The notes under the pieces were generated by a model. That model was not told where the DNA came from and searched no databases. It saw nothing but the letters and a program-made list of their open reading frames with translations. Positions 709-48,658 of a stretch of DNA of 64,000 bases are shown piece by piece. Positions within the stretch are counted from its first letter, which is position 1. Every line of letters starts with the position of its first letter. Source of the DNA: an uncultured Gammaproteobacteria bacterium. Its GTDB lineage: Bacteria > Patescibacteriota > Microgenomatia > Daviesbacterales > UBA10151. Location of the stretch: contig CAZYPW010000001.1 of assembly GCA_964649615.1 (NCBI GenBank), positions 33,557 to 97,556 on the forward strand. Direction: 5' to 3'. A program made the position numbers and the translations under genes.

Positions 709-861
709 TATCCCCTACCAGCTTAAATTGGAAGGTAGTTACATTTTGGGGCACAGGATGTTGTTCCATAGTATTTAATATATACATCGTGAAAAAAATG
801 ATGGCAAGCAGCACAAAACAGATCATTATAGGTCAAATATTTGCCACTTGAAAATTAAAGA

Positions 862-881
862 TTTTCAGGATATCCTGAAAA
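862..881. promoter_or_regulatory. Perfect 20-bp palindrome TTTTCAGGATATCCTGAAAA in the divergent intergenic region; candidate operator.
   Basis: Read directly from the sequence. It is its own reverse complement and lies between the minus-strand gene (start 708) and the plus-strand gene at 1075. Confidence 0.35.
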
Positions 882-1074
882 TGTGGTGTTCCATCCCACC
901 TAGCTTTTAGGCAAAGTGGGGAAGGAACAAGGGAACTTGGTGTAAATCCAAGACTGTGCCGCAACTGTAATCGAGAAGCTATAGCTCTGAGCGAGCAAAG
1001 CGAGTCGAAGAGTCAGGAGACCGACCACATTATAACCCTGAGCAAAGTCGAAGGGATCCCGTAGCAGGAAAAAT

Positions 1075-2538
1075 ATGCCAGAACAAGAAACGCTCAAACG
1101 TCCAGAAATTTCACCTCTTATTCAACCTCAAATTGACCCAGGAGGAAAACTGCAGCCTATTTCCTGGCTTAACGATACAAGAATTATACTTAGACCGGAT
1201 GACCGAATTTCCCACCTTGTAGAACCTCAAAGGACTCAAGAAATACCGGTTGCACCTGGATTAGGGAGAAACTCTATTCTTGAAAAAACAGACTGGAATT
1301 CTGAGTTAGAAATAACCACCCTTTTTAAAAACTACAACAGATATACGAAAGAAGGAAAAGCTCCGCAGGAGGCTCTGCAGTTTTCTTTGGAGGAAGTTGA
1401 AGCAAACATCAGAACCTTCACTTTGGAATTTATCCAGGCCAGGCTGGTGATTCCTTTTTTAGTCAGCCTAGATTCCTCATCTGAATATAGCATTCTGTCT
1501 AAATACGATAGCCGTCCTATTGTTTATAAAACCAGTGAACAAGAAAGATTAGGGGGGAATAAGGAAGCAATGATAAAAGTAGATGCTTTTATGAGAGATG
1601 CACCAGTTGGTTCAGTGGCTATTACAAATAGTTCTCCGGGGGAAACCGGCTGGTTTGATAGCCAGGGCAAAAAGATTATTTATGATGATAACCAGATGAC
1701 TTTTTACGTAAAAGATGAGAACAGTTTTTATGCTTTCACCATAGTTTCAGATTTAAATTATGACCAATCAAGAAGTTATTCCATTGGATTTGGTATTGAT
1801 GAAGTAAGGCTGAATGGTAGTACAGAGATGGAAAGAGTTTCTAACTTGGTGAGAAATCCAATTCTACTTTCCCGTCCCCAATCAGGGCAATCTCCAGTTG
1901 ATGATGCGATAAATAGAATCCTGGCCATCAGGGGAACAGGCATGATTAGAATCAAGAAAAAAGATGGTATACCTGAATATAAACCTGTTTCAGAGTTAGT
2001 GGAAGGTATTAAAAATAGAGAAAATATGCTTAATTTTTGTGAGGAAGCAGAGCAGGTAATCAGCCAGCTAAGAGTTTTTGTTTTTTCTCAAATAGATCAG
2101 TTAGGAGATTTTAGTATTCAAGAAACCATTTCTGAGGTGGTTGATAAAGCAATACTTGAAATTACGCGTATAAATCGTCCTAAAAGTTCCAAAACAGAGA
2201 TCAGAAAAGTTAGTCCCAGCAGCGCTGTTTATTTTAATAAACCCACTATAGCTTCATACACCCCAGATGTAGCAGAATGGATGCAAAGAGATTATAGAGG
2301 AGAAATTGCTTATTTAGAAAATCAAAAAGGATGTGCAGGAGGAAGTAGGATGGGGACATTTAGTATTGGTTCTTCTGCAGTAGTATCTTTTGGGGGAGTA
2401 TCTTCATCTGGAAGTAGGATTTTTAGCTTCGGATCTACCTCTTTGGAATCAAGTAAAAAAGGCAAAACCTGTGTTGGCTGTGGCGAGGTAAACTACTGTA
2501 CTAAAGATTGTTATAAATGCGGAGGGATGTTAATTTAA
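1075..2538 (+). CDS. Hypothetical protein with a Gly/Ser-rich, Cys-rich C-terminus (CVGCGEVNYCTKDCYKCGG).
   Basis: Long ORF from the track with no recognisable domain. The C-terminal CxxC...CxxC cluster is consistent with a Zn-ribbon-like tail. Confidence 0.5.
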   Translation: MPEQETLKRPEISPLIQPQIDPGGKLQPISWLNDTRIILRPDDRISHLVEPQRTQEIPVAPGLGRNSILEKTDWNSELEITTLFKNYNRYTKEGKAPQEALQFSLEEVEANIRTFTLEFIQARLVIPFLVSLDSSSEYSILSKYDSRPIVYKTSEQERLGGNKEAMIKVDAFMRDAPVGSVAITNSSPGETGWFDSQGKKIIYDDNQMTFYVKDENSFYAFTIVSDLNYDQSRSYSIGFGIDEVRLNGSTEMERVSNLVRNPILLSRPQSGQSPVDDAINRILAIRGTGMIRIKKKDGIPEYKPVSELVEGIKNRENMLNFCEEAEQVISQLRVFVFSQIDQLGDFSIQETISEVVDKAILEITRINRPKSSKTEIRKVSPSSAVYFNKPTIASYTPDVAEWMQRDYRGEIAYLENQKGCAGGSRMGTFSIGSSAVVSFGGVSSSGSRIFSFGSTSLESSKKGKTCVGCGEVNYCTKDCYKCGGMLI

Positions 2539-2653
2539 ACATTGACAAGGTTAGCTAAGTTAGACAATATAAAATCATGCAAACAGTTAGCCTTACTCAA
2601 ACAAAGATAAATTTTTACTAAGCAGGGAAAACCAGTGGTAAAGCTAGAAACTT

Positions 2654-3450: not shown

Positions 3451-3603
3451 TCCAAGCTCAATCCCGTCAGGATTATGTTAGTTTTTAATCAAGCTACTTT
3501 ATAACTTTTTTAGTAAGATAGACTCGTCAAGTAAGTTGACACAAAGTTTGGGAAATTCTATGCTGGATAAAGGCCATAGAATTTTTCCAAGAAAGGAAAA
3601 TAT

Positions 3604-6600
3604 ATGGCAGAAAGAATTATGGCAGATGCAGGGATACCAACAGAAGGAGCTTCACCAACAGAGCCAGCAACTGGTCCATCTCCAGAAGCAGGTGTTCAAC
3701 AGTCTGTCAAATCAGTTGGTTTTTTGGAAGAATACGACCCAAGTAAAAATTATACTTTTAGGCAAGAAGGCATTTACTCTGTTGCTGTTGATCCGCAAAC
3801 AGGTAAAGAAGTAGCCAGAGTACCAAGAATAGAAGGAGGAGCTTTACCTAATTGGCTTAAACCGTTCAGCCCTACTTTTAATAGTTTTTTTCAAGATTAC
3901 ACTAGAGTTTCAAAAGAATTTGCAGAAATAGAAGCTGTTCCTCGCCAGCATGTTCCGCGTCCCCACCGCTTTGAGTTTCATGCAATGTATGATCAACGGT
4001 TTAGGGAGTTTCATAGAGTTAAAACAGGCGTTGACCAATTTGTTGATAGTGCTTTGCAAAGAGGGCTTCTACATTTTGTTATTAATGATTTAAAAGCTTT
4101 GCATGTGCGTGCAACTCAACGTGTTAGCCGCTCAGAATTTGGATCTGAATCAGCTTCAGACTGGCAAGCTGAGCTGCGCAATTTTGCAGAAGGAGGCTAT
4201 AAGGAAACATTCTGGAATTATGGAGACGATGTTTTAAGAGCAGTATTTGGCAATATTCCCATAACAGTATTGCGTGAACAGTATGAAGGTGTAGGAGCTT
4301 TTGTAGCCTCCAAAATAGCAATTGCTTTAGAAAAAGACCTCAAAGGAATTGCTTTATCACCAGGCGAACTAGGCGATAGAATTTTTAGAGAGATAAAGGA
4401 AGATCGAAATCGGGCAGAAGAAAGAAGAAGAGAAAGAGCTACTGCTGATGAGATGTTGACATATAGTGATTGGAGAGAACGCTTTGATTTTAACTGGGCG
4501 CAAACCCCTGAAGAGCTGGAACTTTCCGTTTTTGCCTGGCTGGAGAAATTTGTGGCCCATTTGCCAGAAGCCACAATAGAAGAACTTAACAATGAATCAC
4601 TTACCTGGAAACGCAATGCTGTCAGTGCTCTGGAAAAAGCAGCTAACAGGTTGCGTATTTCAGAAAAAGACCCTTTTTATAAAGAACTAAAAGGTACAAT
4701 TGAGGGATATGTTGAGGTGCTCCGGGGAGTAAAGTTTTTGGAAACAGATGGTGGAGCCGAAGCCCACACGGTTGCCCTGGAAGAATTTGCCCATAATTTT
4801 AATGAAAAGCATGATGCTATTTATTTAGGCAATGCCAAATCTGCCATTATTCAAGCCTTTCTTGCCAAGCATAAGAATATTGCGATGGGAGATGATGGAA
4901 ATATTGAGAAGCCTCAATTCGGTGATATAGAAGATTTCAGGGGGAATATAGAAGAGCAGGCCAAAAGATATGCAGCAACCCATGAATTATATATCAGACC
5001 AGAAGATTTTGAGGAGAGAAGGATACAAAATAACGAGGGTTACGGGTGGGATGATGTAGTTGAGGAATTATTGCTTGTAGATAGTAGAGGTATGGCTCAA
5101 GCAGCTGTTTTAACAGATCCTATTGCTCAGGCAGAAGCTATAGTAAAAGTAGCTACCAGGACAGGTGTATTCAAAAACATAAAAGAAAGGTTAGACAAAG
5201 AAGAAGGATTTGACAGCTTGACTGTAGATCAAAGAAGGGATGTTATCAGAGACAGGATAAAAGCCAAGATTAGCCTGGCAGGTAATCAGCAGTTGCTCAG
5301 TGAAATTAATGCCATGAATCAAACAGAAGCTGACCAGGCATTATGGAAATACGTAAGAGATTTTAACCGAAAAATGGAAAGCCAGGGCCATAGGCTCTGG
5401 TTCCCCAGTAACTGGGATACAGTTAGATTAAGCATTAATAGGTCAACTAAGTTAGTAGACAGGGTTTTATCTGAAGAAGAACTGGAGGCCATGATAGAAG
5501 AAGTCAGCCCTTTTGTTATAGGTGGTAAACCAATTATGATTGATAAATTAACCCCTGAACAGATTGAGGCAGAAATAGCAAAAATAGCCGGGTTAAGTAC
5601 TACACAGAAGAGAGAACTACTGGAAGATGCTTTATTTGATAAACAACAAAGAGAAACTGAGGCAGAGAGGGCCTTTAATATCAATAGAGCTTATCAAAAA
5701 TTCTTAGGAGTGGATGCTAGGTGGGGCGGTATGGCTGTCAGAGTAGTTAATGATGATGGAGAGGTAGTACTAAGAAACGTCTGGGATATAGCACAAGAGA
5801 TATTGAAAGCCAAGATTGATGCAGAAGAGGCAGTTATCGAAGCCCAAGTGATTACCCACGAGGCAGCATTAAGAGCAAGAGGCGGATTAACAGCTGCTGA
5901 AATAGAGAAAGCAGTAACTGAAAGAAGAAGAATGTTAAGGCGGGATTCCACATTTGGCGCTACCTTAGCCTTAAGAGAAATAGGCATTGCTAACGATTTG
6001 CCAATCTGGAATTACTATTATTACAATGATCCTCAACGCATTCAAACTTTTGCCCCACTTGTAGGATATACCCATAATGATAAGACAGAAATAATAGAAC
6101 TTTTAGATAGGGGCAGAAGAGAAATGAGGGCGGTTTGGGATTATCTGGCAGATACTTATATGGATGGTAAAATCTTAATGGTAAAAGATGAACCAAATGT
6201 AACAGTAGATGCAAGCGGCCAGCCAGCAAATTTCCATCAAGAGAGAATGGATCGGGCAAGGGTCATTAATGAGGCTGGTGTATCAGTTTTAAGAGAAGTA
6301 TTTGAAGCCAGGTTTCAGCTTTCAACCAGTGGTGGAGTAGAAGTAGTTGACCTAATTTCCAGGGTAGGAGATTTAGGAATATATGATTTGCTTTGGGAAA
6401 TGGGGTGTAAGGATTTTAGGGAGTTTCAGGGATTTATTAAAAGAAGAGATGAAGTGGAGCTAAGAAAACAAAGTTTTTGGAATATCAGACAGTGGAGGGA
6501 CCCAATTACTTATGCAAAAAGGTTACGAGGGGCACATGCTGCCAGGCCATACCTGACAGGAGGAGATGTCAAAGGACAACGCAAACCTGGCTTGCTTCAG

Positions 6601-7377
6601 GAACCAATGATGGGTGCTTATAAATTTAGAGATGCGTTTGTTGATAGAAATAGCTGGGGAGGTAGTGGAAGCAGTGAAATAAAAAATAAAATAGATCAGA
6701 CTAACAGCGAGTTTAAGAAAGTACTCCAAGAGATTCTTGAGAATGATGGGAATTTTGCGAAATTAACTGTGCAAGAGCAAGATAAAGTGGTCGAAACAGG
6801 AGCTGGCATCTTAAGCACCCTGATAGAATATATGGAGGCTCTAAGGTATAAGATGAACAGAGCCGGGCTGGCTCCCAAAAATTGGAAATTGGACAATGAA
6901 TTAATATTTAGGCATTATGCCATAGAATTGTTAAAGAGGGCTCCATTACCAGGCAAAGCAGAAATCTTGGGAGGGGGTGAAAAGTTAGGAGATCAGGATT
7001 TAGGTTATGCTGTACAAGGCAGAAGTAAGTTGGCTATTAAGATATATGAAAATATTTTAAGAACCAGTTCTTACCATATTCTAGTGGGAAAAGACCGTCA
7101 AGTTTTTGATGATAAAGGTGTGGAGATTAAAGCAAGGATGGATACTGAACGAGCAAGGATACAGGCACAACCGTTAACTCCTGAACAACAGAACAGAGTT
7201 AATGCAAGAAGGACTTATCTAGCCTCTCTTAATACCACACCAGATATGCTAAATGAGGAGATTGCTAGATTAGAAAAACACTACAGGGAAGAAAGGCTCC
7301 ATAAAGAATTTGTGGGAGAGTGGCCAGCTAAATTAGCAGAAGCTGCCGAGCAATTACTACCGTTAAAACTTGGGTAA
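3604..7377 (+). CDS. Very large (1257 aa) soluble protein of unknown function; charged and coiled-coil rich.
   Basis: Uninterrupted ORF with no TM segments and no motif I recognise. It lies immediately upstream of the pilus/T4SS-like locus. Confidence 0.6.
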   Translation: MAERIMADAGIPTEGASPTEPATGPSPEAGVQQSVKSVGFLEEYDPSKNYTFRQEGIYSVAVDPQTGKEVARVPRIEGGALPNWLKPFSPTFNSFFQDYTRVSKEFAEIEAVPRQHVPRPHRFEFHAMYDQRFREFHRVKTGVDQFVDSALQRGLLHFVINDLKALHVRATQRVSRSEFGSESASDWQAELRNFAEGGYKETFWNYGDDVLRAVFGNIPITVLREQYEGVGAFVASKIAIALEKDLKGIALSPGELGDRIFREIKEDRNRAEERRRERATADEMLTYSDWRERFDFNWAQTPEELELSVFAWLEKFVAHLPEATIEELNNESLTWKRNAVSALEKAANRLRISEKDPFYKELKGTIEGYVEVLRGVKFLETDGGAEAHTVALEEFAHNFNEKHDAIYLGNAKSAIIQAFLAKHKNIAMGDDGNIEKPQFGDIEDFRGNIEEQAKRYAATHELYIRPEDFEERRIQNNEGYGWDDVVEELLLVDSRGMAQAAVLTDPIAQAEAIVKVATRTGVFKNIKERLDKEEGFDSLTVDQRRDVIRDRIKAKISLAGNQQLLSEINAMNQTEADQALWKYVRDFNRKMESQGHRLWFPSNWDTVRLSINRSTKLVDRVLSEEELEAMIEEVSPFVIGGKPIMIDKLTPEQIEAEIAKIAGLSTTQKRELLEDALFDKQQRETEAERAFNINRAYQKFLGVDARWGGMAVRVVNDDGEVVLRNVWDIAQEILKAKIDAEEAVIEAQVITHEAALRARGGLTAAEIEKAVTERRRMLRRDSTFGATLALREIGIANDLPIWNYYYYNDPQRIQTFAPLVGYTHNDKTEIIELLDRGRREMRAVWDYLADTYMDGKILMVKDEPNVTVDASGQPANFHQERMDRARVINEAGVSVLREVFEARFQLSTSGGVEVVDLISRVGDLGIYDLLWEMGCKDFREFQGFIKRRDEVELRKQSFWNIRQWRDPITYAKRLRGAHAARPYLTGGDVKGQRKPGLLQEPMMGAYKFRDAFVDRNSWGGSGSSEIKNKIDQTNSEFKKVLQEILENDGNFAKLTVQEQDKVVETGAGILSTLIEYMEALRYKMNRAGLAPKNWKLDNELIFRHYAIELLKRAPLPGKAEILGGGEKLGDQDLGYAVQGRSKLAIKIYENILRTSSYHILVGKDRQVFDDKGVEIKARMDTERARIQAQPLTPEQQNRVNARRTYLASLNTTPDMLNEEIARLEKHYREERLHKEFVGEWPAKLAEAAEQLLPLKLG

Positions 7378-7392
7378 TGTAAACTCTTTGTA

Positions 7393-9174
7393 TTAAGGCG
7401 ATTTTCTTTTCCACTTAAGAGGATTCCAGGGTGAAGCACTTCGATCTATGAATGTTCCTATACCGGGTTTCGTAGGACCATATTCGAATCCTCCAGTGCC
7501 AGGGTTAAGATAGTATCCCTTCTCTCCAAAAATATTCTGTTTAAACATTCCCCCTTGGCCACGAATAGCACCTGCTCCTTGTTCATAGTATCCTCTACCA
7601 CCCCTGATACCTCCTGATACTTCCTGTCCAATTAATTGTCCTGCCTGGCCCATTTTACCAATAGCGCTGACAATTATATCCGGAATTTTAGGCAATGCCA
7701 TTAAAGCTCCAAAAGCCAGTAAAATCTTAATAAATCCTAAATCTAAACCTCCAAACAAAGGGAAAGCAGTACCCTCTACAATATTAATTTTATCTGCGGC
7801 ATATACCGCTGGGACAAAGCTACTTTCTTCCATCTGGTTTGATTGAGTTACTTTAAGGGGGCCACCATAATCCTGACCCATTAAAAAGGCTACGAAATAA
7901 AATACAGCTAAAACAGCAGGAAATACTAAGATATTAGCAAGCAGCTTCAGCATCCAGCCGGTAGCAATGCTCTGCCTGCCTGGTAAAGCAGCTGCTAAAA
8001 AATGAAAAGGGGCACTAATTGTTAGGAAAATAATTGTTAAATAACTAGCGAGTAAACGCAAAAGCAGTTTTAACATCTGATATATTAGGGCAAAGGTGGC
8101 GATAAAACTTAACATCAATCCTACCCATGTGGTAGGAAAAGTAGCCACTGTTACCCCAGCAACTAGATTTATTAAAGGACTGGCAATCAGCCCATAAGGA
8201 GGAGGGATAGCTCCTGACAAGGGACTGATAAGTTGAGCACTAATAAAACCTGCCAGCAGCCTGATATAAAATTGAGTTTCACCGTTCATTTTCTCTAGGA
8301 TAGCGCCTAAGGCTTTAGAGGCATCATCCCAGGTAATGATATTTAGGAAGGGGCTAAAAATACTCAACATACTCTCAACAGAGATATGTTGTACTAGGTT
8401 TGTTCTTTGGGGATCATCTAGCTCATTTTGAGCAGCAGCAAAGAAATAACCCACAGCATTTGTGCCTATAAAAGCCGTATCTGAGATAGCTGCTGCCATA
8501 AAGTAACTGAATGTGATAAGGATCAGACCAAGTACTAATCCTGGTAATGCAGCCTGTGCTGTGATTACAGTTTGAGGATTAATTCTATTTCTAAACATTA
8601 CCATTAACCCAATAACTACAAAGATAATCACCATAATTAAGTAAGCTATATTTCTTGACACTTCCCAAAGTCTCAATACTGGATCTAAAACCCTAGCTGC
8701 TGATCCTACTACTTGAGCATTAACGGGTTTTACTATGCCAAATCCCTTTCCCACATAAGCTATATAATTGACTGTTCTAACAGGAGGATTGGTATACAAA
8801 GCAGTAATTAAGGAAGTTGTTGAACCTAATACCCCTCCTGATAAATCAACTTGGGATAAAACCGGTACCCCGGAAACATAAGTTAAACAAGGCTGGCCAA
8901 TTACAGATTGGCCAATCCCTAAACAAGAAAAAGTATGAAACATATTATGGATTAAAAGATCAGTGTAGATGGGAGAGGTGGGGGAGATGGTAGATGGTAG
9001 ATGGTAGTTGGTAGTTGGTAGTGGAGAAGCAGAAGGGGTAGATGTCTGAGCATGGATAGGAGTAGCATAAAGCGTAAAAGTTAAAAGGCAAAAGGTAAAA
9101 GTCAAAAATGCAAGTAAAAAGTAAAAAGTTTTTAGAAATTTTGAATTTTGAATTGTAATTTTGACATTTGACAT
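7393..9174 (-). CDS. Polytopic membrane protein; VirB6/TrbL/CedA-like candidate channel component.
   Basis: N-terminal signal peptide, then a ~130-aa exported segment, at least 6 TM helices, and a Gly-rich C-terminal tail. It sits directly adjacent to the tandem pilin-like genes. Confidence 0.4.
   Translation of the reverse strand: MSNVKITIQNSKFLKTFYFLLAFLTFTFCLLTFTLYATPIHAQTSTPSASPLPTTNYHLPSTISPTSPIYTDLLIHNMFHTFSCLGIGQSVIGQPCLTYVSGVPVLSQVDLSGGVLGSTTSLITALYTNPPVRTVNYIAYVGKGFGIVKPVNAQVVGSAARVLDPVLRLWEVSRNIAYLIMVIIFVVIGLMVMFRNRINPQTVITAQAALPGLVLGLILITFSYFMAAAISDTAFIGTNAVGYFFAAAQNELDDPQRTNLVQHISVESMLSIFSPFLNIITWDDASKALGAILEKMNGETQFYIRLLAGFISAQLISPLSGAIPPPYGLIASPLINLVAGVTVATFPTTWVGLMLSFIATFALIYQMLKLLLRLLASYLTIIFLTISAPFHFLAAALPGRQSIATGWMLKLLANILVFPAVLAVFYFVAFLMGQDYGGPLKVTQSNQMEESSFVPAVYAADKINIVEGTAFPLFGGLDLGFIKILLAFGALMALPKIPDIIVSAIGKMGQAGQLIGQEVSGGIRGGRGYYEQGAGAIRGQGGMFKQNIFGEKGYYLNPGTGGFEYGPTKPGIGTFIDRSASPWNPLKWKRKSP
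9089..9163. repeat. Left arm of a ~75-nt inverted repeat; encodes KITIQNSKFLKTFYFLLAFLTF in the 593-aa membrane protein.
   Basis: Its reverse complement is nearly identical to 13915-13990. Confidence 0.85.
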
Positions 9175-9229
9175 TTGAATTTTGACCTTTCTTCCTAAGA
9201 TTAAACCAAAACTTAAATACTTTCAAGTT

Positions 9230-9538
9230 TTAAGGTTTGCACCAATCAGTGCCACCAAAGTTACATAAAATTCCAATATTAAAAGAAGTTACCTCAACTC
9301 CTGTGGCTATTTGTATGAGCTGTAGTATCAGCCACCCTACTGCCATAAAAACTATGCCTAAGAGTGCCCAGGTAATGGTCATTTTGGCAGCTTCCAAGTT
9401 TTTAGGGTCTCCACCTGACCTTAAATATTTATATCCTGCAAAAGTAATCATCACAAACATAGTAATAATCCCCAAGCCTACAATTGAGGAAATGATGCTA
9501 TTTAAAATATCTTGTATTTGTTGTAATCCAGCAGGCAT
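9230..9538 (-). CDS. VirB2/TrbC-like (T4SS-type) pilin paralog.
   Basis: Small two-TM protein with the conserved loop AGYKYLRSGGDPKNLEAAKMTITWALLG, which is shared with its neighbours. Confidence 0.5.
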   Translation of the reverse strand: MPAGLQQIQDILNSIISSIVGLGIITMFVMITFAGYKYLRSGGDPKNLEAAKMTITWALLGIVFMAVGWLILQLIQIATGVEVTSFNIGILCNFGGTDWCKP

Positions 9539-9589
9539 ATATCTAAAGTAACACTATATCAAATACGATGGTATATATAAATTAATTAA

Positions 9590-9964
9590 TTACGGAGCGG
9601 TAGGTATGGTAATCTTTGTTAGGCCACCGCTAAATCCTAAGAATTCAGCTGCCACATTTGCCAAAGCAAAAGCCACTGCCAAAACTGCCAGCCCAATTAG
9701 GGCATTAACTATTTTACTTCTGGCTTTGCCAACAGCTTCTTTATCTCCGCCAGAAGTAATCCAATCAAATGCTCCCCATACCAGATAGATTAATACTAAA
9801 AGTAAGGCCACAGCAAAAGCCAGTTGTATAACATTACCTATAAATACCCCTATATCTTTATAGCCTTGGGTAGGGGCTTGAATATTAAGATCAAAAACAG
9901 CATAAGCACTGGCTGCTGCAATAAAATAAGTTACAGCAGAAGAAACAATGGCTAATTTTTTCAT
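9590..9964 (-). CDS. VirB2/TrbC-like pilin paralog.
   Basis: Signal peptide, then TM, then the motif LVWGAFDWITSGGDKEAVGKARSKIVNALIGL, then a second TM. Confidence 0.55.
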   Translation of the reverse strand: MKKLAIVSSAVTYFIAAASAYAVFDLNIQAPTQGYKDIGVFIGNVIQLAFAVALLLVLIYLVWGAFDWITSGGDKEAVGKARSKIVNALIGLAVLAVAFALANVAAEFLGFSGGLTKITIPTAP

Positions 9965-10017
9965 TACTTATTTAAGTATATCTCTATTAAAAATATCTTG
10001 TCAAGTCCCGGTTAATT

Positions 10018-10455
10018 CTATCTGCAATCTGCTGCTTCTTCACCAGGGAAACAAATTCGTTTACAACTTTTAGAAGATGAATCATATGAGTATCCAGGTG
10101 AACAAGAGTTTGTGGAGAAGAAGCTAAAGCCTGTAAATTTCCCAAAAACTGCAATTATGGCAAAAGCTGCTGCAAATAAAAGTATGCCGATCATGGCATG
10201 GATGATCTTTTGTTGGGCTTGTTGGACTTTTTCCTTTTGCCCTTCAGAAGTAATCCAATCAAATGCTCCCCAAAGGATCATAAAAAGAAAAAATACTGCT
10301 GCTACAGCATAGATCAGCCCTATCAAATTACTGAAAAATTTGCTTATTCCTGTTGCCCCACTTAGATTTCCTTGTGTGAAAGGATCTAATTCTGGTGGCG
10401 GTTTTATGGCACCAAATATATCTTTAAAATCTGCAGCCAGTTTCATATTAGCCAA
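10018..10455 (-). CDS. VirB2/TrbC-like pilin paralog with a Cys-rich C-terminal tail.
   Basis: Carries the motif ILWGAFDWITSEGQKEKVQQAQQKIIHAMIGIL. The C-terminus is ...CSPGYSYDSSSKSCKRICFPGEEAADCR. Confidence 0.55.
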   Translation of the reverse strand: MANMKLAADFKDIFGAIKPPPELDPFTQGNLSGATGISKFFSNLIGLIYAVAAVFFLFMILWGAFDWITSEGQKEKVQQAQQKIIHAMIGILLFAAAFAIIAVFGKFTGFSFFSTNSCSPGYSYDSSSKSCKRICFPGEEAADCR

Positions 10456-10843
10456 TTAATCTTAACCCAGTTATACCAAACAATCTAGCAAGTAAAAATT
10501 GTAAAATCAAAAATGAGAGCATTAACAATATAAAGCCAATTAAAGAATGGATAATCATTTGTTTGGCGCTTTCAATATCTTCTTTATTTGCCCCAGCCTT
10601 CATGTATTTAAAAGCTGCTATTAGAAAATAAATCACCACCAATACTGTAGCTATTGAGAAGATAGCAGGAACCAGCCTTGTTGTCCCCTCGCCTAAAGTG
10701 GTAATATCCCTAAAACCAAAATCTTTACCCAAATCTATTGGATCTGGAGCTTGTGCAGAAGCATAAGGAGTGTAAAGTGTAAAAGTTAAAGTGTAAAGTG
10801 CTATTATAGTTTTTACTTTTAAGTTTTTACTTTTAAGTTTCAT
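10448..10843 (-). CDS. VirB2/TrbC-like pilin paralog.
   Basis: Signal peptide followed by ...LIAAFKYMKAGANKEDIESAKQMIIHSLIGF, with the same two-TM architecture. Confidence 0.5.
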   Translation of the reverse strand: MKLKSKNLKVKTIIALYTLTFTLYTPYASAQAPDPIDLGKDFGFRDITTLGEGTTRLVPAIFSIATVLVVIYFLIAAFKYMKAGANKEDIESAKQMIIHSLIGFILLMLSFLILQFLLARLFGITGLRLIG

Positions 10844-11179
10844 TTAAAATGGTGTTTGCCCCCCTGTTTTGACAAAAATCTCTGTGGCAAACCTGGTGAT
10901 AAAATAAGCCAAAAAGATCACCATTAAGCCTACCAAAGCCCAGGTAATTCTGGACCTGGCTTTGGCTAAATCTTCTTTTTTGCCTCCTGCTAAGATATAT
11001 TGGTATGCTCCCCAGACCAGGTAGAAAAAAGTTAGAAAAAGCATGATATAAATGGTGATATTAACTAAAACAGATACAAAACTGCTAAGATTGATAAATT
11101 CTGGTTTTAAACCAGAAGGAGTAGGGATAGGCTGGGTTTGTCCTGGTAAGGTTAGTGCTAATAAAGATTTAAGATTCAT
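10844..11179 (-). CDS. VirB2/TrbC-like pilin paralog.
   Basis: Carries ...YLVWGAYQYILAGGKKEDLAKARSRITWALVGL. Confidence 0.5.
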   Translation of the reverse strand: MNLKSLLALTLPGQTQPIPTPSGLKPEFINLSSFVSVLVNITIYIMLFLTFFYLVWGAYQYILAGGKKEDLAKARSRITWALVGLMVIFLAYFITRFATEIFVKTGGQTPF

Positions 11180-11234
11180 GATTCAATTATAGCTTAAAGC
11201 TTAGAACGTAAAGTGTAAAGTTACAGTTTAAAAC

Positions 11235-11603
11235 TTAAAGTTTCCTTTTCCCTTTTAAAGTAAGTAAGCTTGCTCCTAAAATATTTGCAAGTTCTTTCGT
11301 TTCTGTTAGTAAAATATTAACTTCGTTTTTATCAGTATTGGTTCCATCTCGTAATATTCCAAGCCAGTACTTAGTTTCATTAGCACTCTTAAGGGCAATA
11401 GCATAAAAATTAATGAAATCTTTCTTGCTTGATGCAGCTTGTGCCTCAATAATATTGGCTCCTATAGAGGTAGCAGCTCTTAATAGCTGATCAGATATTA
11501 CCCAGAAAATTCTTTCATTAGGTAACTTAGTCACAAATTGCACTATCCTAATGGAAAAAGTATATGCCCGGTACTTTAGTTGTTCCTTGTTATTGTTATT
11601 CAC
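11235..11603 (-). CDS. Four-helix-bundle protein (23S rRNA intervening-sequence protein family).
   Basis: YRAYTFSIRIVQFVTKLP...ISDQLLRAATSIGANIIEAQAASSKKDFINFYAIALKSANETKYWL is the characteristic sequence of this family. Confidence 0.7.
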   Translation of the reverse strand: MNNNNKEQLKYRAYTFSIRIVQFVTKLPNERIFWVISDQLLRAATSIGANIIEAQAASSKKDFINFYAIALKSANETKYWLGILRDGTNTDKNEVNILLTETKELANILGASLLTLKGKRKL

Positions 11604-11666
11604 AGATTTAACTTTTTAGTTGTAGTTTTGCGCTTTAAGTTTTACGTTTTACACTTAAATCCCTAT

Positions 11667-12815
11667 TTATTTACAGCTATCAAATCCTGGTATGCACAGT
11701 ATATCAACCCCAATAATTTTTAAAAGTAAGGTAGCAAAGATTACAAACAAAAGCCCAATGATAGCTGAGGTAAACCTATCCCTGCCACCCTCCAATCTCT
11801 CTGGGTTACCAGCAGATGAGATCATCTGAAATGCACCTACAAGCATCAGTAAAAAGGCAAATCCACCAGAGATAGCTACCAGAAATGTTAAAAGATCTTT
11901 GATAAAACTAATCGGGTTGGTGTGGATACAACCAATAGCTGTGGCAATTGCTGGATCTTCATCAGTTCCACACGGTTTTGCTCCTGCTAGGGTACATTTA
12001 CTGGGGTCGGTACAGTGAGGGGTTATAGGTGCGCCAGGAACCACAGGAGCAATAGAGGCAGAAGGGTTTGGTGTAGACGGAGTTGTGGCTGTGGCACTAA
12101 TTTGGATTGGCCAAAAACACTGATGAAGCGGAGCAAGCTTATAAATTCGCAGATTATATTTATACCCAATCTCTCTTGATAAAGTTAAGTTTGTAAAAGC
12201 ACCCTGACCTGTGCTGCCGGTCTCAGTAGAAGCCAAATCAGGATCTCTTCGGCTACTTACATTAAAATCTTGAATTTTATATTCAGTGTTAGCCAATCCT
12301 AAGAATTTGATATCAAACGGAGTATTTGGTTGAATTGTACTTGGGGGTGGAGGAGATAAACCTATTGTACATCCTCCGGTAGCCCCTATCTGGTAGGAAA
12401 TTTGCGAGCAGAAATCTTGATAGTCACCACTTGCATTAGGTTGCCAATACAATTCTCCTGTGAATTTTCCAGCTTCAATAAGAGAGTTTGTTCTAAAACC
12501 CAATTCACTCCCCCTAATAGTTAAAGAAAATTTATTACCTGAAACAGTTACAGATTGTGTATCATAATCTCCAAGATGAGCGTACCACGCACTGAAGTGT
12601 AAACTAACTGATTTACCATTTAAGAGTGCTAACGTAGCTGGATCATTGATTGTAAAATTAAAAGTTAAATCAGTTGTACCTTCTGGAAAATATTTAGGAT
12701 CATAAGTAATGTTAACAGTGGGTGCAGCGCAACTATCTGAAGCTTGCACAACTGGTATGAATGTGTTGAAGAGAGTCAAAAGACCAATAATTCCAAAGAT
12801 AAAAAGTCTGGACAT
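11667..12815 (-). CDS. Secreted 382-aa protein with a large N-terminal extracellular domain and a C-terminal pilin-like two-TM domain; candidate tip or adhesin pilin.
   Basis: Signal peptide. The C-terminal 70 aa (LLMLVGAFQMISSAGNPERLEGGRDRFTSAIIGLLFV) is homologous to the small pilin paralogs. Confidence 0.5.
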   Translation of the reverse strand: MSRLFIFGIIGLLTLFNTFIPVVQASDSCAAPTVNITYDPKYFPEGTTDLTFNFTINDPATLALLNGKSVSLHFSAWYAHLGDYDTQSVTVSGNKFSLTIRGSELGFRTNSLIEAGKFTGELYWQPNASGDYQDFCSQISYQIGATGGCTIGLSPPPPSTIQPNTPFDIKFLGLANTEYKIQDFNVSSRRDPDLASTETGSTGQGAFTNLTLSREIGYKYNLRIYKLAPLHQCFWPIQISATATTPSTPNPSASIAPVVPGAPITPHCTDPSKCTLAGAKPCGTDEDPAIATAIGCIHTNPISFIKDLLTFLVAISGGFAFLLMLVGAFQMISSAGNPERLEGGRDRFTSAIIGLLFVIFATLLLKIIGVDILCIPGFDSCK

Positions 12816-12848
12816 TATCCAAAGCTTAGCATAAGTAGGGCTAAAATG
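12810..12848. repeat. 39-nt direct repeat, copy 1 (GGACATTATCCAAAGCTTAGCATAAGTAGGGCTAAAATG). It overlaps the start codon and 5' region of the 382-aa pilin-domain gene.
   Basis: Matches 13858-13896 with 38 of 39 nt identical. Confidence 0.8.
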
Positions 12849-12897
12849 ATATCCTTCGGCAGGCTCAGGACAGGCAATTTTGAGCTAGGTTTTGGGA

Positions 12898-13587
12898 TTA
12901 GGATTTAGTTTTATGGTTAGGCTTGATTTTTAATAACAGATTGCGCGAAAGATTCTGATAAAATTGTATGAAAGCTTTTTTATCAAAAGCAGCTTTCATT
13001 TTTGGCAGGGTTTGCATTTTATCTGCATCTGCAATTACATTTGCGAAATAAAATTCCGATAAACCAGTATCTTTTTGCTTTGCCAATTGAAAGATTTTAT
13101 TAAATGATAATTCTGTTTGTATACAAATCATATAAAGATCAATATAATCCTTAGGCTCCAGCCGTCCGAAGACTGCAAGTACCTTATTTGTCGCAATATT
13201 AATAAGTGAATCAATCCTGATGCTGTCAATGGTTTGTATCTTGCCAAAATGTTTAGGTTGTTCTTGAACAATGTCGATTTTTTGCATCCAGCCCTCTTTT
13301 TTATTCTCCAGAAAGATCTCATTATATGTTTGAGAACGGATATGAATTGTTAGTTTAGAATTTGTTTGGCTGGCAATTTCCTGCATAGTAGTACGGAGAG
13401 TAAGGGTATCAAACGGCTCCAGGCTAAAAAAATCTAAATCCTGGCTTTCACGGTGAGCGAGATAAAAAGCCGAAAGAGCAGTACCACCTGTCAGGAAAAA
13501 AGGTCTGGCAAATGGTGAGGAAAAGAATTTTAACAAAAGCGTTGTTTGATGTGGGTATAGGATCTGGTTGTTTTGTAACCTATACAT
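12898..13587 (-). CDS. AbiEii-type nucleotidyltransferase toxin (DUF1814).
   Basis: Motif FFLTGGTALSAFYLAHRESQDLDFF. The start is assigned to the MYRLQ ATG at 13587 so that it does not overlap the upstream small gene. Confidence 0.65.
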   Translation of the reverse strand: MYRLQNNQILYPHQTTLLLKFFSSPFARPFFLTGGTALSAFYLAHRESQDLDFFSLEPFDTLTLRTTMQEIASQTNSKLTIHIRSQTYNEIFLENKKEGWMQKIDIVQEQPKHFGKIQTIDSIRIDSLINIATNKVLAVFGRLEPKDYIDLYMICIQTELSFNKIFQLAKQKDTGLSEFYFANVIADADKMQTLPKMKAAFDKKAFIQFYQNLSRNLLLKIKPNHKTKS

Positions 13588-13870
13588 GGTAGCCCCAAAC
13601 ATTAAGCGCCCGTTGCCATGCCCGTTTAATATTGATTGGTAAACGTAATTTTGGGAAGATTTTAACAATATCATTTACTGTAAGATATCTCCATATATCT
13701 TTAAATTGCGCATGGGTTAATATCCGTGCTACCAGCCAGGATTTTTCCGTAGTATTCTTGCTATGTAAAATATTTCGTACTTGTTTTTTATTAAGATCAT
13801 AATCCCAAAGAAAATATAGTTTATTCATGGTTAAATAATACCACAATTTGTCATTTTGGACATTATCCAA
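13580..13870 (-). CDS. Small protein encoded immediately upstream of AbiEii; candidate cognate antitoxin or partner.
   Basis: Operon-like tandem arrangement: its stop is 5 nt upstream of the AbiEii start. No domain recognised. Confidence 0.35.
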   Translation of the reverse strand: MDNVQNDKLWYYLTMNKLYFLWDYDLNKKQVRNILHSKNTTEKSWLVARILTHAQFKDIWRYLTVNDIVKIFPKLRLPINIKRAWQRALNVWGYHV

Positions 13871-13896
13871 AGCTTAGCATGAGTAGGGCTAAAATG
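13858..13896. repeat. 39-nt direct repeat, copy 2.
   Basis: See copy 1. It lies in the divergent region between the 96-aa gene and the SpoIID-like gene. Confidence 0.8.
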
Positions 13897-13903
13897 GTAC
13901 AAT

Positions 13904-15658
13904 TTGGAGACCATGTTTCACTGCAAAATTACAATTCAAAATTCAAAATTTCTAAAAACTTTTTACTTTTTACTTGCATTTTTGACTTTTATTTTTTGCC
14001 TTTTAACTTTGCCTGTCTATGCTGATGAGCTTGAAGATATTAAAAACCAAATTAATGAGCTAAATCATGCCAGGGAATTATCTGTTTCTGCCACCAAGCC
14101 CTTGGAAGGGCAACTGGAGGGCTTACAAAGGCAGCTAGCCCAAATTCAAGCCAGTTTAGACCATATAGCTTTAACTATTGCCCAAAAGCAAAAAGAGCTG
14201 GATTTAAGGGAAGATAAACTAGCCCTGCAGCAAGCCCTTTTAGAAAAAAGAGTTAAAGCCTACTATATCCGCTCATATCTCTCAGATCCACTGGTGGTGA
14301 TTTTATCCTCATTCCAATCAGGAGATTTATTTAGGGAATTGTCTTACCGCCAGACTGTGGCCAGGGAAGATAAACAAGTCATCTCCTCCATTACCAGCCA
14401 GGTGGTGGATTTATTAAATCAAAAAGAAAAATTAGAACAAGATAAAGCTAAACTGGCTTCTTTGCAAGCAGAGGTAGACAAAAATGCGAAGTTTTTGGGA
14501 GGGGAGGTTAAAAAGGCCAAGACTTATCAGGAAGAGCTTTCCTCTAAAATTGCCCAACTTTCTGCCCGCCAGCAACAAATTATCTCTCAAAGGCAAGCCT
14601 CCTTAAACTTGCCTACCTCTTTGGGAGCAGGACCACTCTTTTGTACTGATGATAGAAAGCTGGACCCGGGATTTTCTCCAGCTTTTGCTTTTTTTACTTT
14701 TGGCATTCCTCATCGGGTGGGGATGAATCAATATGGAGCTTTGGGTAGGTCTCAAGCAGGCCAATCTGCAGAGCAGATTTTGCAGGCCTATTTCCAAGAC
14801 TTTTCCTTTGAGCAAAGGCCAAATATCAATATTTCTGTCCAAGGTTTTGGTTCTATGCCTTTGGAAACTTATTTATTAGGCATTTATGAGATGCCAGATT
14901 CCTGGCCAATAGAGGCTTTAAAAGCTCAAGCTATTGCTGCCCGCTCCTATGCCCTTTCCTACACTAACAATGGTTCTAAAGAAATTTGTACTACTCAAGC
15001 CTGCCAGGTTTATAAAGGAGGCAATAAGGGAGGGAATTGGGAAAATGCAGTCAAACAAACTGAGGGTAAAACCATGGTTTCAGGAGGTTCTGCTGTTTCT
15101 GCCTGGTATTCTTCAACTGATGGAGGATATACCTATTCATCTTCAGACGTGGGTTGGAGTTCCCGCTCTTTTACTAAAAGGGTCAGAGATACCAGTGGAG
15201 ATATATCCTCATTTGAGGATCTTTTTAGCAAAAGTTATGATAAAGATTCACCTTGTTTTTATGCAGCCCAAGGTTTTAGGCCTCAATATGCCAAGAGTGC
15301 TTGGTTGAAGAGTGAAGAAGTTTCAGATATTGCTAATGTAATCATGCTTTCCAAAAGAGATAGTTCTGTTTCATCCCATATCTATCAAACAGATAAACCA
15401 AATCCAGAGGGGACTGAGACTTGGAATGAAGATAAAGCCAAACAAGAATTAAGGAATAAAGGGGGTTCACCATTTAACAGTGTTTCAGCAGTTTCTGTGG
15501 GGGTAGATTTTTCCTCAGGACAGGTAACTTCTGTAACTGTGTCTGGAGATAGAGGGCCAGAGACCTTTAACGCTACAGAATTTAGAAACTTTTTTAACCT
15601 TAGGGCTCCAGCTAATATTCAAATTGTAGGACCGTTGTTTAATATAGAAAAAAAATAA
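13904..15658 (+). CDS. Secreted coiled-coil protein with a C-terminal SpoIID/LytB domain (a peptidoglycan lytic-transglycosylase-type hydrolase).
   Basis: Signal peptide, then ~200 aa of heptad-rich sequence. The C-terminal domain reads IEALKAQAIAARSYALSY...CTTQACQVYKGG...AWYSSTDGGYT (SpoIID/LytB signature). Confidence 0.7.
   Translation: METMFHCKITIQNSKFLKTFYFLLAFLTFIFCLLTLPVYADELEDIKNQINELNHARELSVSATKPLEGQLEGLQRQLAQIQASLDHIALTIAQKQKELDLREDKLALQQALLEKRVKAYYIRSYLSDPLVVILSSFQSGDLFRELSYRQTVAREDKQVISSITSQVVDLLNQKEKLEQDKAKLASLQAEVDKNAKFLGGEVKKAKTYQEELSSKIAQLSARQQQIISQRQASLNLPTSLGAGPLFCTDDRKLDPGFSPAFAFFTFGIPHRVGMNQYGALGRSQAGQSAEQILQAYFQDFSFEQRPNINISVQGFGSMPLETYLLGIYEMPDSWPIEALKAQAIAARSYALSYTNNGSKEICTTQACQVYKGGNKGGNWENAVKQTEGKTMVSGGSAVSAWYSSTDGGYTYSSSDVGWSSRSFTKRVRDTSGDISSFEDLFSKSYDKDSPCFYAAQGFRPQYAKSAWLKSEEVSDIANVIMLSKRDSSVSSHIYQTDKPNPEGTETWNEDKAKQELRNKGGSPFNSVSAVSVGVDFSSGQVTSVTVSGDRGPETFNATEFRNFFNLRAPANIQIVGPLFNIEKK
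13915..13990. repeat. Right arm of the inverted repeat; encodes the same signal-peptide residues in the SpoIID-like protein.
   Basis: See the left arm. Confidence 0.85.
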
Positions 15659-15694
15659 AGTTAAAAGTCAAAAGTTAAAACTCAAAAGTGTGGT

Positions 15695-15722
15695 AGTTCT
15701 GCCCTGCAGAACTTTTTAATTT
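15695..15722 (+). terminator. Rho-independent terminator (AGTTCTGC-CCT-GCAGAACT stem followed by TTTTTAATTTT).
   Basis: Perfect 8-bp stem followed by a T-tract, directly after the stop at 15658. Confidence 0.6.
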
Positions 15723-15748
15723 TAAATTGTAATTTTGAGTTTTGCATT

Positions 15749-16339
15749 TTGAGTTTTGAAATCAAAAAGAGTATACTCCTTTTTGCCATGTTTCCTTCTT
15801 ATGTAGAAAATCCAGAGAATTGCTCATTTGAAGGCCAGGATCCCCAAGAAAAAATACTGCTTCTTTTAAGGGCTCATCCAATAACTAATTTAAGCTGGAT
15901 TATTCCCGCGATATTACTCTTTTTCCTGCCTTTTGTGATAGGTTTAGCTTTGAGCTTTTTTTCTATTCCCCCAAATATTATTCCAGAGCCTTTTGGGCTG
16001 GTTTTTTTGCTATTTAATTTTTTACTAATCATGTCCATTGTTTTTGAAGGTTTTTTATATTGGTATTTTAATGTGTATATAGTAACTAATAAAAATATTA
16101 TTGATATAGATTTTCACTCCATTCTTTACAAAAACATTGATGTTGCCCCTCTGCGCAACATAGAAGATACCCAATCCTCTATGATAGGGATACTGCATTC
16201 TATTTTTCACTATGGCCATGTTTATATCCAAACTGCAGGAGCAGCCAGAAATATAGATTTAGTTGATGTGCCCAGACCCCATCATGTGGCTGATTTTATC
16301 TTGGATGAATCACATAAAATTTATGGAAATATCCAGTAG
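15749..16339 (+). CDS. Membrane-anchored bacterial PH-domain protein (bPH_2/DUF304-like).
   Basis: Two TM helices, then a segment matching the YdbS/YdbT-type PH domain pattern (...YIVTNKNIIDIDFHSILYKNID...IQTAGAARNIDLVDV). Confidence 0.5.
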   Translation: MSFEIKKSILLFAMFPSYVENPENCSFEGQDPQEKILLLLRAHPITNLSWIIPAILLFFLPFVIGLALSFFSIPPNIIPEPFGLVFLLFNFLLIMSIVFEGFLYWYFNVYIVTNKNIIDIDFHSILYKNIDVAPLRNIEDTQSSMIGILHSIFHYGHVYIQTAGAARNIDLVDVPRPHHVADFILDESHKIYGNIQ

Positions 16340-16358
16340 TTTTAATTTTTTAAATTCG

Positions 16359-16559
16359 ATGGCCTTTTTAATTGTTTTAAAGGCGTCAACTTTGCTTATT
16401 CTTGTGATATATATTATATTTGCCCTAATGATTGTCAGGCAGGTTAGTTTAATGAGCCAAACTTTAATTACCCCAGTTTCCAAAGTTGTGAAGTTAGTAG
16501 CCATATTCCATGCCTTTTTTGCAGTAAGCTTACTAGGTTTGGCATGGGCCATATTATAA
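16359..16559 (+). CDS. Small two-TM membrane protein (hypothetical).
   Basis: MAFLIVLKASTLLILVIYIIFALMIV...VAIFHAFFAVSLLGLAWAIL. I chose the in-frame ATG at 16359 over the longer track ORF. Confidence 0.3.
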   Translation: MAFLIVLKASTLLILVIYIIFALMIVRQVSLMSQTLITPVSKVVKLVAIFHAFFAVSLLGLAWAIL

Positions 16560-16630
16560 AGAGTTAAGAGTTATTAGTTCGGAGTTCGTAGAAAAATATC
16601 TACCTACTACGAATTAAAACGAAGCGTATT

Positions 16631-18933: not shown

Positions 18934-18937
18934 ATAT

Positions 18938-18969
18938 TTGCTTTTAGGCTCAGAATATGGTAATATAAT
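18938..18969 (+). promoter_or_regulatory. Sigma70-like promoter for ssrA: TTGCTT, 17-nt spacer, TAATAT(AAT).
   Basis: Read from the sequence. The -10 element ends about 8 nt before the tmRNA 5' GGGG. Confidence 0.4.
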
Positions 18970-18974
18970 GCAAT

Positions 18975-19411: not shown

Positions 19412-20146
19412 GTGATTAGTTGCTTTACTATAAACTATGAACTACCAATTATGAACTATCTTCTGGATATTTTATTTCCTAAAAAATGCGTGGGGTGTAA
19501 GAGAACTGGAAGCTATTTTTGCCAGAGTTGCATCAGGAATATTAAACAAGGTGATTTAGTTTGCCCAAGATGTGAGAAATTGTCAGTAGGAGGACAGACT
19601 CATCCGATTTGTAGAAGAAGATATGGTTTAGATGGGCTGTGGAGTTTAGGGATTTACCAGGATTCCTTAAGAGAGGCAATTAAAACCTTAAAGTATAAAG
19701 GAGTAAGAGAATTAGCAGAAAATTTAGTAAATATTACTTTGGAATATTGGGTAAAATATCAACCATTTATCTTAGACCAGATCAAAAAAGATAGAGGAGA
19801 AGGGTGGGTAGTAACTGCAGTTCCTTTGCATTGGTATAGGCAAAATGATAGAGGTTTTAACCAATCTTCTTTAATTTCTCAGATGTTTGCCCAAAAATTA
19901 GGATTAAATTATGCTAAGGCCTTAAAAAGGATTCGTTTTACTAAGTCCCAGGTAAAACTTAAAGGTAAACAAAGAAAAGATAATATTTCCGGTGCGTTTG
20001 CATTATCTACAAACTACCCACTACAAACTACCAACTGCTTACTTATTGATGATGTTTGGACCACAGGTTCTACTATCAAAGAGTGTTGTTATATTTTAAA
20101 AAGAAACGGAGCCAAAAAGGTCTGGGGAATAACTTTGGCTAGATAA
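19412..20146 (+). CDS. comFC: ComF-family competence protein (double zinc ribbon plus phosphoribosyltransferase domain). The true start is probably the MNYLL... ATG at 19451.
   Basis: CVGCKRTGSYFCQSC...CPRCEKL zinc ribbons, and a C-terminal LLIDDVWTTGSTI PRTase motif. Confidence 0.8.
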   Translation: MISCFTINYELPIMNYLLDILFPKKCVGCKRTGSYFCQSCIRNIKQGDLVCPRCEKLSVGGQTHPICRRRYGLDGLWSLGIYQDSLREAIKTLKYKGVRELAENLVNITLEYWVKYQPFILDQIKKDRGEGWVVTAVPLHWYRQNDRGFNQSSLISQMFAQKLGLNYAKALKRIRFTKSQVKLKGKQRKDNISGAFALSTNYPLQTTNCLLIDDVWTTGSTIKECCYILKRNGAKKVWGITLAR

Positions 20147-48651: not shown

Positions 48652-48658
48652 TCCTTTT

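Follow-up and report, generated by a model that had tools for sequence, protein, structure and literature searches.

The window analysed here, a stretch of 64,000 nt from the chromosome of a Candidatus Daviesbacteria (candidate phyla radiation), also carries smpB, tmRNA, tRNAs, dnaG and rpoD. The locus under study (positions 7393-16339) comprises six genes for pilins related to those of type IV secretion systems (T4SS), a gene for a polytopic membrane protein of 593 amino acids (aa) and, on the opposite strand, a gene for a SpoIID-type protein. The long pilin bearing immunoglobulin (Ig)-like domains, the five short VirB2-like pilins and the polytopic protein would form one operon. All the open reading frames (ORFs) listed for this region by an initial annotation, made from the sequence alone, are present at the same positions and on the same strands. 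The gene cluster stands as it was listed there, except that two unrelated genes interrupt it (11235-11603 and 12898-13870).

The main genes are as follows.

7393..9174, minus strand: 593-aa polytopic membrane protein encoded at the end of the pilin operon, candidate VirB6 analogue (from topology, context and a weak fold match)
9230..9538, minus strand: pilin paralogue 1, 102 aa (PF18895, 42.8 bits; position-specific orthologues)
9590..9964, minus strand: pilin paralogue 2, 124 aa, Sec signal peptide (PF18895, 31.5 bits)
10018..10455, minus strand: pilin paralogue 3, 142-145 aa (142 aa in public data), Cys-rich C-terminal tail (PF18895, 26.8 bits, barely over the cut-off)
10448..10843, minus strand: pilin paralogue 4, 131 aa, signal peptide (PF18895, 34.5 bits; weak TrbC/VirB2 match, E 0.037)
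10844..11179, minus strand: pilin paralogue 5, 111 aa (PF18895, 36.3 bits)
11667..12815, minus strand: long pilin, 382 aa, first gene of the array (PF18895, 32.4 bits at residues 304-368)
13904..15658, plus strand: secreted or anchored coiled-coil SpoIID/LytB protein, 584 aa, divergent from the pilin operon (PF08486, TIGR02669)

The pilin array

The ORFs were scanned against Pfam and NCBIfam. The six ORFs of the array all match the T4SS_pilin family PF18895 (26.8-42.8 bits) above its gathering score of 26.6 bits, in agreement with the initial proposal that five small paralogues and a sixth gene share a T4SS-type pilin domain. The public gene calls on identical DNA, made independently, carry the same Pfam pilin labels. 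The classical TrbC/VirB2 family (PF04956) is matched by paralogue 4 only, and weakly. The best NCBIfam matches of the pilins are to the «pilin-like conjugal transfer protein» of the Mycoplasma integrative conjugative element (ICE), all of them under the cut-off.

Hydropathy and alignment indicate a short charged loop between two hydrophobic helices in every pilin. The N-termini are of two kinds: Sec signal peptides in three pilins, short hydrophilic tails in the other three. The motif LVWGAFDWITSGGDKE...ALIGL is located in the 124-aa protein (9590-9964). The best sigma-70-like site of the region (10004-9975, minus strand: TTGACA, 18-nt spacer, TATACT, 11/12 positions) lies just upstream of paralogue 2; it hints at an internal promoter and at paralogue 2 as a possible major pilin. 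It must be noted that the sigma-70 promoter scan as a whole was not above chance (59 sites vs. 53 expected).

The long pilin had been described as an extracellular domain fused to a pilin module, and its AlphaFold2 (AF2) model bears this out (mean predicted local distance difference test, pLDDT: 80.6). The model contains, in this order, a signal peptide, two Ig-like β-sandwich domains (residues ~26-143 and ~150-240, each with conserved cysteines), a Pro-rich linker of low confidence, a small Cys-rich hairpin (Cys knot) and a helical hairpin (helices 301-333 and 338-372). The C-terminal module is strongly conserved (55-76% identity in many relatives) and the sequence of the ectodomain is variable. 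The length of the long pilin among relatives goes from 217 to 622 aa.

Conservation of the locus among relatives

One genome per species was scanned, leading to 49 related loci; individual homologues were also looked up. The shared layout consists of: (i) a left-pointing group with smpB, a 600-aa protein, a DUF5657 protein, a bacterial PH-domain (bPH) protein and SpoIID; (ii) divergent from it, the long pilin, often a four-helix-bundle gene, the five short pilins and the 593-aa gene; (iii) convergent with the latter, a soluble protein of 1100-1700 aa and a protein of ~450-500 aa; (iv) divergent again, the PrgI-like, TrsD-like and VirB4 genes. This layout recurs in ~49 species-level genomes, and in a further locus whose 593-aa homologue is only ~29% identical.

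Of the 37 fully covered arrays, each from one species, 32 keep the paralogues in the order 6-5-4-3-2-1 with the 593-aa gene after them. Every pilin of a relative is clearly closest to a single one of the six window paralogues: the identity of the pilin core is 52-66% between orthologues and 18-39% between the six paralogues. Conservation of the paralogues and of the synteny, which the initial annotation had left to be checked, is thus observed. Judged from these comparisons, the six paralogues are an old, fixed and order-conserved set. A set of this kind favours a division of labour (major, minor and tip subunits, or a stalk of defined stoichiometry) rather than host-range or antigenic variation.

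The locus is situated between smpB/tmRNA and dnaN/dnaA, with the same order in dozens of species. This bears on the possibility that it is part of an integrated conjugative element, for which an ATPase resembling type IV coupling proteins (T4CP), recombinases and toxin-antitoxin modules elsewhere in the window could be invoked. Neither a relaxase nor a flanking integrase is among the findings and the GC content is even across the region. The conserved core-genome position refutes such an origin, which we hold to be extremely improbable. As initially described, no relaxase, VirB8/9/10 or VirB11 is seen among the scanned ORFs (some small ORFs were left unscanned).

The motor genes

Three further genes of the window are listed here.

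1..769, minus strand: PrgI/VirB3-like gene, 5' part (256 codons), cut by the window edge (PF12666 PrgI, E 2.7e-8, above the cut-off; translation)
19412..20146: ComF-like gene, 3 kb from the locus
46306..48651, plus strand: T4CP-like ATPase (TrwB/TraD-type matches), 781 aa, 37 kb from the pilin locus

The window is prolonged leftwards by L005, a public overlapping contig from another assembly. Window positions 1-2900 are 100% identical to L005:8927-11826, and L005 carries the 487-aa protein of the window (1075-2538) with identical sequence. The prolongation contains the PrgI-like gene, complete (344-363 aa), a TrsD/TraC-like gene, a 590-aa VirB4, a 532-aa single-pass protein, two Big_5 proteins, dnaN, dnaA, rpmH and rnpA, the last four at most 10 kb away. 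The PrgI/VirB3-like, TrsD-like and VirB4 genes would belong to a second operon, the energising module, whose first base in the window is 769 and which continues beyond the left edge. The TraC-like/TrsD matches of the TrsD-like gene are specific but under the NCBIfam cut-off. VirB4 (L005:6026-7798, i.e., 1.1-2.9 kb left of window base 1) reaches 387.8 bits with the NCBIfam family «VirB4-like conjugal transfer ATPase, CD1110 family» (cut-off 325), which is of the Gram-positive/monoderm-conjugation type.

According to the overlapping contig the motor genes are thus close to the pilin locus, just past the left window edge. The initial annotation had mentioned a ComF gene and a distant VirB4/VirD4-clade ATPase. 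Both genes are present in the window, but the 46306-48651 ATPase is coupling-protein-like and the cognate VirB4 is adjacent, not distant.

The initial annotation had also considered the locus closer to archaeal Ced than to a classical T4SS. In a Ced/Ted-like DNA-import pilus the pilins and a CedA-like channel would act together with ComF and an ATPase of the HerA/VirB4 clade. The resemblance is real for VirB2-like pilins, a polytopic membrane protein, a VirB4-clade ATPase, a missing relaxase and ComF at a short distance; moreover, nucleotide acquisition by the T4SS has been speculated for Saccharibacteria (PMC11665869). The identity of the components is opposed to it: VirB4 has just 61.7 bits with CedB (cut-off 700), no Ced family is among the NCBIfam matches of the pilins and of the 593-aa protein, and the partners PrgI and TrsD are markers of monoderm conjugation. 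In addition, comEC of Southlakia epibionticum is dispensable while its T4SS is essential (PMC12857230). A DNA-import pilus of this kind is therefore very improbable, and Ced/Ted appears as a looser analogy than monoderm conjugation.

The 593-aa polytopic protein

An N-terminal signal or anchor, an ectodomain of ~140 aa with conserved cysteines, ~6-7 transmembrane (TM) helices and a Gly-rich tail make up the 593-aa protein. A profile search among 1.84 billion cluster representatives gave 3197 clusters at E ≤0.001 and 1352 at E ≤1e-30. The family has no Pfam model and Pfam domains occur in none of the members listed; the homologues come almost exclusively from Candidatus Daviesbacteria and Microgenomates genomes. 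In the related loci the gene is always downstream of the pilins. It shares the T4SS cluster with the VirB4 and VirB3 genes, and its product is the sole polytopic protein of the extended locus.

The structure model has a mean pLDDT of 68 (70-93 in the membrane core). Its first and third Foldseek matches are T4SS entries of R388, the third being the VirB5-VirB6 stalk complex (E 0.25-0.5). VirB6 chains rank among the first matches in two independent fold searches and align over a far longer stretch than the others, and the best full-length fold match, although weak, is TrwI/VirB6 of R388. TrbL matches are found in 2 of 46 diverse relatives, sub-threshold (E 0.0084). Since it is the sole polytopic protein, since the fold matches are weakly positive and since a phylum survey reported VirB6 as «scarce» in Microgenomatia, with a suspicion of extreme divergence (PMC12102498), the 593-aa protein is treated here as the best candidate for a VirB6-type platform. 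Context and topology make it a candidate, not a proven VirB6.

The first TM hairpin of the protein was also considered as a pilin module. Earlier hints were sub-threshold TrbC matches in 9 of 46 relatives and an hhalign probability of 40% with the six pilins. With a profile of 277 pilin sequences the probability is 6-9%, vs. 0.5% for the reversed control, and the relationship is unproven.

Candidate wall enzymes

The SpoIID/LytB domain of the 584-aa protein (PF08486: E 4e-20, 72.6 bits; TIGR02669: E 5e-40, 138 bits) is accompanied by a signal anchor and a long coiled coil. In 28 of the 30 species whose loci have enough flank, the gene lies next to the long pilin in divergent orientation, and it is kept in the distant locus with the ~29% identical 593-aa homologue (L057). 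The initial annotation had seen in it a SpoIID hydrolase that could open the wall like VirB1. The domain is confirmed; the role is no more than plausible, by virtue of the conserved adjacency.

The 532-aa single-pass protein adjoins VirB4 (L005:4413-6011, minus strand, ~3-4.5 kb left of window base 1). Its Cys/His-rich C-terminal domain contains GIDIAG and HVHVE motifs which look, by eye, like those of M23 peptidases; an HMM (hidden Markov model) scan gave no match. This protein is a second candidate wall-opening enzyme.

The 593-aa and SpoIID genes have a repeat in common.

9064..9163, no strand assigned: repeat of ~90-100 nt encoding the N-terminal signal peptide of the 593-aa protein (inverted repeat I1, 93%; blastn 97.7% over 87 nt)

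The inverted partner (13924-14023) encodes the signal peptide of the SpoIID protein, which is near-identical to that of the 593-aa protein, and a third, split copy is present at 15657-15738, just past SpoIID; identity between the copies is 93-98%. The repeat common to both proteins was not found in the other genomes compared; it is specific to the present genome and not a conserved targeting signal. N-termini resembling K-I-Q-N-x-K...LTF recur in relatives.

Interpretation

The results taken together make it probable that 7393-16339 is the pilin arm of a chromosomal, origin-proximal Patescibacteria T4SS, derived from monoderm conjugation machinery of the type MPF_FATA (MPF: mating-pair formation). 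What the sequences show directly is the family of the pilins, VirB3, TrsD, VirB4 and SpoIID, and the gene order with its conservation; filament formation and the roles of the platform, the adhesin and the wall enzyme are inferred from these. In such a system the pilins would go into the membrane as hairpins of two helices, and VirB4, with the VirB3-like protein as its anchor, would pull them out and stack them on a polytopic platform of the VirB6 type. The Ig-bearing pilin would be placed on the tip or surface, where it could touch the host cell as an adhesin. The wall might be made passable by the SpoIID-type enzyme or by the 532-aa protein beside VirB4. The structure, together with any substrate that it may transport, would most likely serve the interaction with the host cell and not plasmid conjugation, which is unlikely since no relaxase is seen.

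A number of points weigh against this interpretation. The VirB4 side is read from an overlapping contig of another assembly, outside the window. Synteny within one clade can mean shared ancestry rather than function, which weakens especially the link with SpoIID. The profile of the six pilins has no sequence match with the solved pilins (VirB2, TraA, Ced) in the PDB, and we know of no filament observed for any such system. The 593-aa protein, taken as a single sequence or as two profiles (A2 and A4), matches nothing in Pfam, NCBIfam or the PDB. It has no match with TrbL/VirB6 (PF04610) at E ≤0.1. Its family aligned by hhalign with 25 PrgH sequences gives a probability of 0.6%, PrgH itself being a recognisable TrbL member. 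Finally, the Foldseek matches of its model lack statistical significance.

The last points would be expected if the 593-aa protein were an unrelated, Patescibacteria-specific membrane protein (e.g., a pilin insertase, a processing factor or a transporter) which merely shares the operon: neither HMM nor profile-profile comparison gives a similarity to TrbL/VirB6 or PrgH and no fold match is better than E 0.25. The fold searches headed by VirB6 chains, the sub-threshold TrbL matches in relatives, the fact that the locus would otherwise have no VirB6 and only this polytopic protein, and the divergence suspected by the survey argue in the other direction, thus we consider this explanation rather doubtful. 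No unrelated transporter family, which the initial annotation had named as a contrary outcome, was matched. Its designation of the protein as VirB6/CedA-like stands for the polytopic character, and not for a sequence relationship to TrbL/VirB6 or to a Ced family.

A serious rival, though an unlikely one, concerns the pilins. The small proteins might be membrane-embedded subunits of a channel or a short stalk and not of an extended pilus, like the hairpin proteins of monoderm and Mycoplasma conjugation, and the Ig-bearing one might be a surface anchor. This would agree with the sub-cut-off matches to the Mycoplasma ICE family and with monoderm MPF_FATA systems being mostly without pili (PMC12102498); six non-redundant, order-conserved paralogues suit a complex of fixed stoichiometry as well as a filament. 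On the contrary, the Pfam family and the published structure-based annotation both designate VirB2-like pilins, and an N-terminal ectodomain on one of the paralogues suits surface display on a fibre.

The cobalamin riboswitch and two proteins without family

Between the two arms of the T4SS locus are the following features.

867..1043, plus strand: cobalamin riboswitch ahead of the 487-aa gene, pointing away from the PrgI-TrsD-VirB4 operon (Rfam RF00174, 67.5 bits)
1075..2538, plus strand: conserved cytoplasmic protein, 487 aa, with a C-terminal Cys4 motif (syntenic orthologues in at least 13 loci)
3604..7377, plus strand: conserved giant soluble protein, 1257 aa, convergent with the 593-aa gene, no TM helices

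A riboswitch of the cobalamin class is found in the equivalent position in 6 of 7 related loci. A literature search gave no paper joining «cobalamin riboswitch» and «Candidate Phyla Radiation». Orthologues of the 1257-aa protein (1135-1675 aa) occupy the same place. Neither the 487-aa nor the 1257-aa protein has a match in Pfam, NCBIfam or the PDB, profiles included. A Phd/YefM antitoxin and PIN toxin pair (2654-3450, plus strand) is located between the two genes; in related genomes an ORF of ~76 aa is found in its place.

A more elaborate arrangement, which is quite improbable, can be envisaged. The six paralogues would build one heteromeric, ordered appendage, with the Ig pilin at the tip, a major-pilin shaft and minor pilins for the rest. 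This appendage would be nucleated on a Patescibacteria-specific platform other than VirB6, possibly with a pilin-like hairpin of its own, and the 487-aa and 1257-aa proteins, under riboswitch control, would be its partners in the cytoplasm or its cargo. If this were true, the activity of the T4SS would be tied to the cobalamin status during host-cell parasitism.

Neighbouring and passenger genes

11235..11603, minus strand: four-helix-bundle protein, 23S rRNA intervening sequence (IVS) protein/Avd-like family (PF05635, E 1e-24; TIGR02436)
12898..13870, minus strand: AbiEii toxin gene and small upstream ORF (PF08843)
15749..16339, plus strand: membrane protein with a bacterial PH domain, conserved neighbour (bPH_2, E 0.004, under the cut-off; synteny)
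16263..16559, plus strand: DUF5657 small membrane protein, conserved neighbour (PF18901, E 1.7e-15; synteny)

The four-helix-bundle gene comes right after the long pilin in 15 related species or loci and is found elsewhere in further loci (L008 and L011-L014 are among the loci with the gene). It is probably a passenger, unrelated to the cluster. A diversity-generating retroelement around it is unlikely: in 3000-19000 there is no template/variable repeat pair and no reverse-transcriptase family among the ORFs scanned.

The AbiEii cassette is flanked by direct repeats of 66 nt (12786-12851 and 13834-13899; D3, 82% identity) that are copies of the 5' end of the long-pilin gene and of the sequence before it. 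The cassette is a variable insertion, present in few related loci only at this place between the long pilin and SpoIID, and it looks like the footprint of a mobile toxin-antitoxin insertion. The true start of the DUF5657 protein is probably internal (~78 aa).

Farther away in the window, the ATPase gene at 46306-48651 (plus strand) is followed by a GIY-YIG nuclease, a tRNA-Ile(tat) and a tyrosine recombinase (48596-48976, 49642-50505), and a serine recombinase with an AAA_25 protein is found at 30885-34085. Both groups, at 46-50 kb and at 30.9-34.1 kb, could be what is left of integrated elements that have nothing to do with the T4SS locus. Rfam places a group I intron (RF00028, 92 bits) at 39082-39280 (minus strand), in the gap between two ORFs without informative family; ARAGORN and Rfam gave no host tRNA or rRNA gene there. 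A 918-aa phosphoketolase ORF (56793-59549, minus strand) has the N-terminal, central and C-terminal XFP domains and a C-terminal CoA_binding_2 domain.

Comparison with known systems

The T4SS of Patescibacteria has already been published (Wang et al. 2023, PMC10633639; Quinonero-Coronel et al. 2025, PMC12102498). In S. epibionticum it is essential for growth on the host, as determined by transposon sequencing (Tn-seq), is closest to Gram-positive conjugative systems, has no recognisable coupling protein or relaxase and includes an essential series of pilins (PMC10633639), counted as six in reviews (PMC12857230). The phylum survey (PMC12102498) described VirB4 proteins that form a clade of their own, related to MPF_FATA and partnered by TrsD and PrgI, along with rare relaxases and loci near dnaA/dnaN. 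VirB2-like pilins were recognised there through PF18895 and PF04956, in 441 arrays of 2-11 genes from 383 assemblies, most commonly in Microgenomatia and Saccharimonadia. The present locus fits these descriptions point by point, and the pilin paralogy, initially annotated as unusual, is thus a known feature of the phylum.

The closest comparison is with SEML1_0006-0019 of S. epibionticum. Both loci have a monoderm VirB4 with PrgI/VirB3 and TrsD, six divergent VirB2-like pilins and the dnaA/dnaN neighbourhood, and no relaxase or coupling protein nearby. The Daviesbacteria locus differs in that: (i) an operon of two unknown proteins, headed by a riboswitch, separates its two divergent arms; (ii) VirB6 is undetectable by sequence and a large unmodelled family is found instead; (iii) the first pilin has Ig-like domains; (iv) SpoIID is a constant wall-enzyme neighbour. 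The MPF_FATA systems (Prg/Pcf of pCF10, CTn2 with CD1110) have in common with it the CD1110 VirB4, PrgI, a TrsD-like protein and the monoderm envelope. On the other hand, pCF10 has no PF18895 pilins, its PrgH can be recognised as a TrbL protein, unlike the 593-aa family, and it possesses a relaxase, a T4CP and the adhesin PrgB.

The MPF_T systems (VirB of Agrobacterium, Trw of R388) have a VirB2 pilus, a VirB6 platform and a VirB5 tip. The likeness lies in the small two-helix pilins, in a polytopic protein whose predicted fold has its best, though weak, overlap with TrwI/VirB6 and in a possible tip or adhesin subunit. The locus has, however, no VirB5, no VirB7-11 and no outer-membrane complex, the adhesin-like domain is part of a pilin rather than of a separate VirB5, and there are six paralogues instead of one. 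Tandem VirB2-like genes in host-associated T4SS are also found in Bartonella, Anaplasma and Rickettsia, where they are read as antigenic or host-range variation. Here, in contrast, the six ancient paralogues are orthologous position by position with a conserved order, which points to a division of labour.

The T4SS being already described, the contributions of the present locus are testable leads and not a new kind of system. The additions are the 593-aa family, the ancient, order-conserved set of six pilins, the Ig-domain pilin constantly in first place, SpoIID as a constant neighbour and the conserved riboswitch. The locus would show how Microgenomatia build the T4SS that is essential in the sole cultivated, genetically tractable Patescibacterium, and the 593-aa family is a concrete VirB6 candidate for a class in which sequence surveys found so few.

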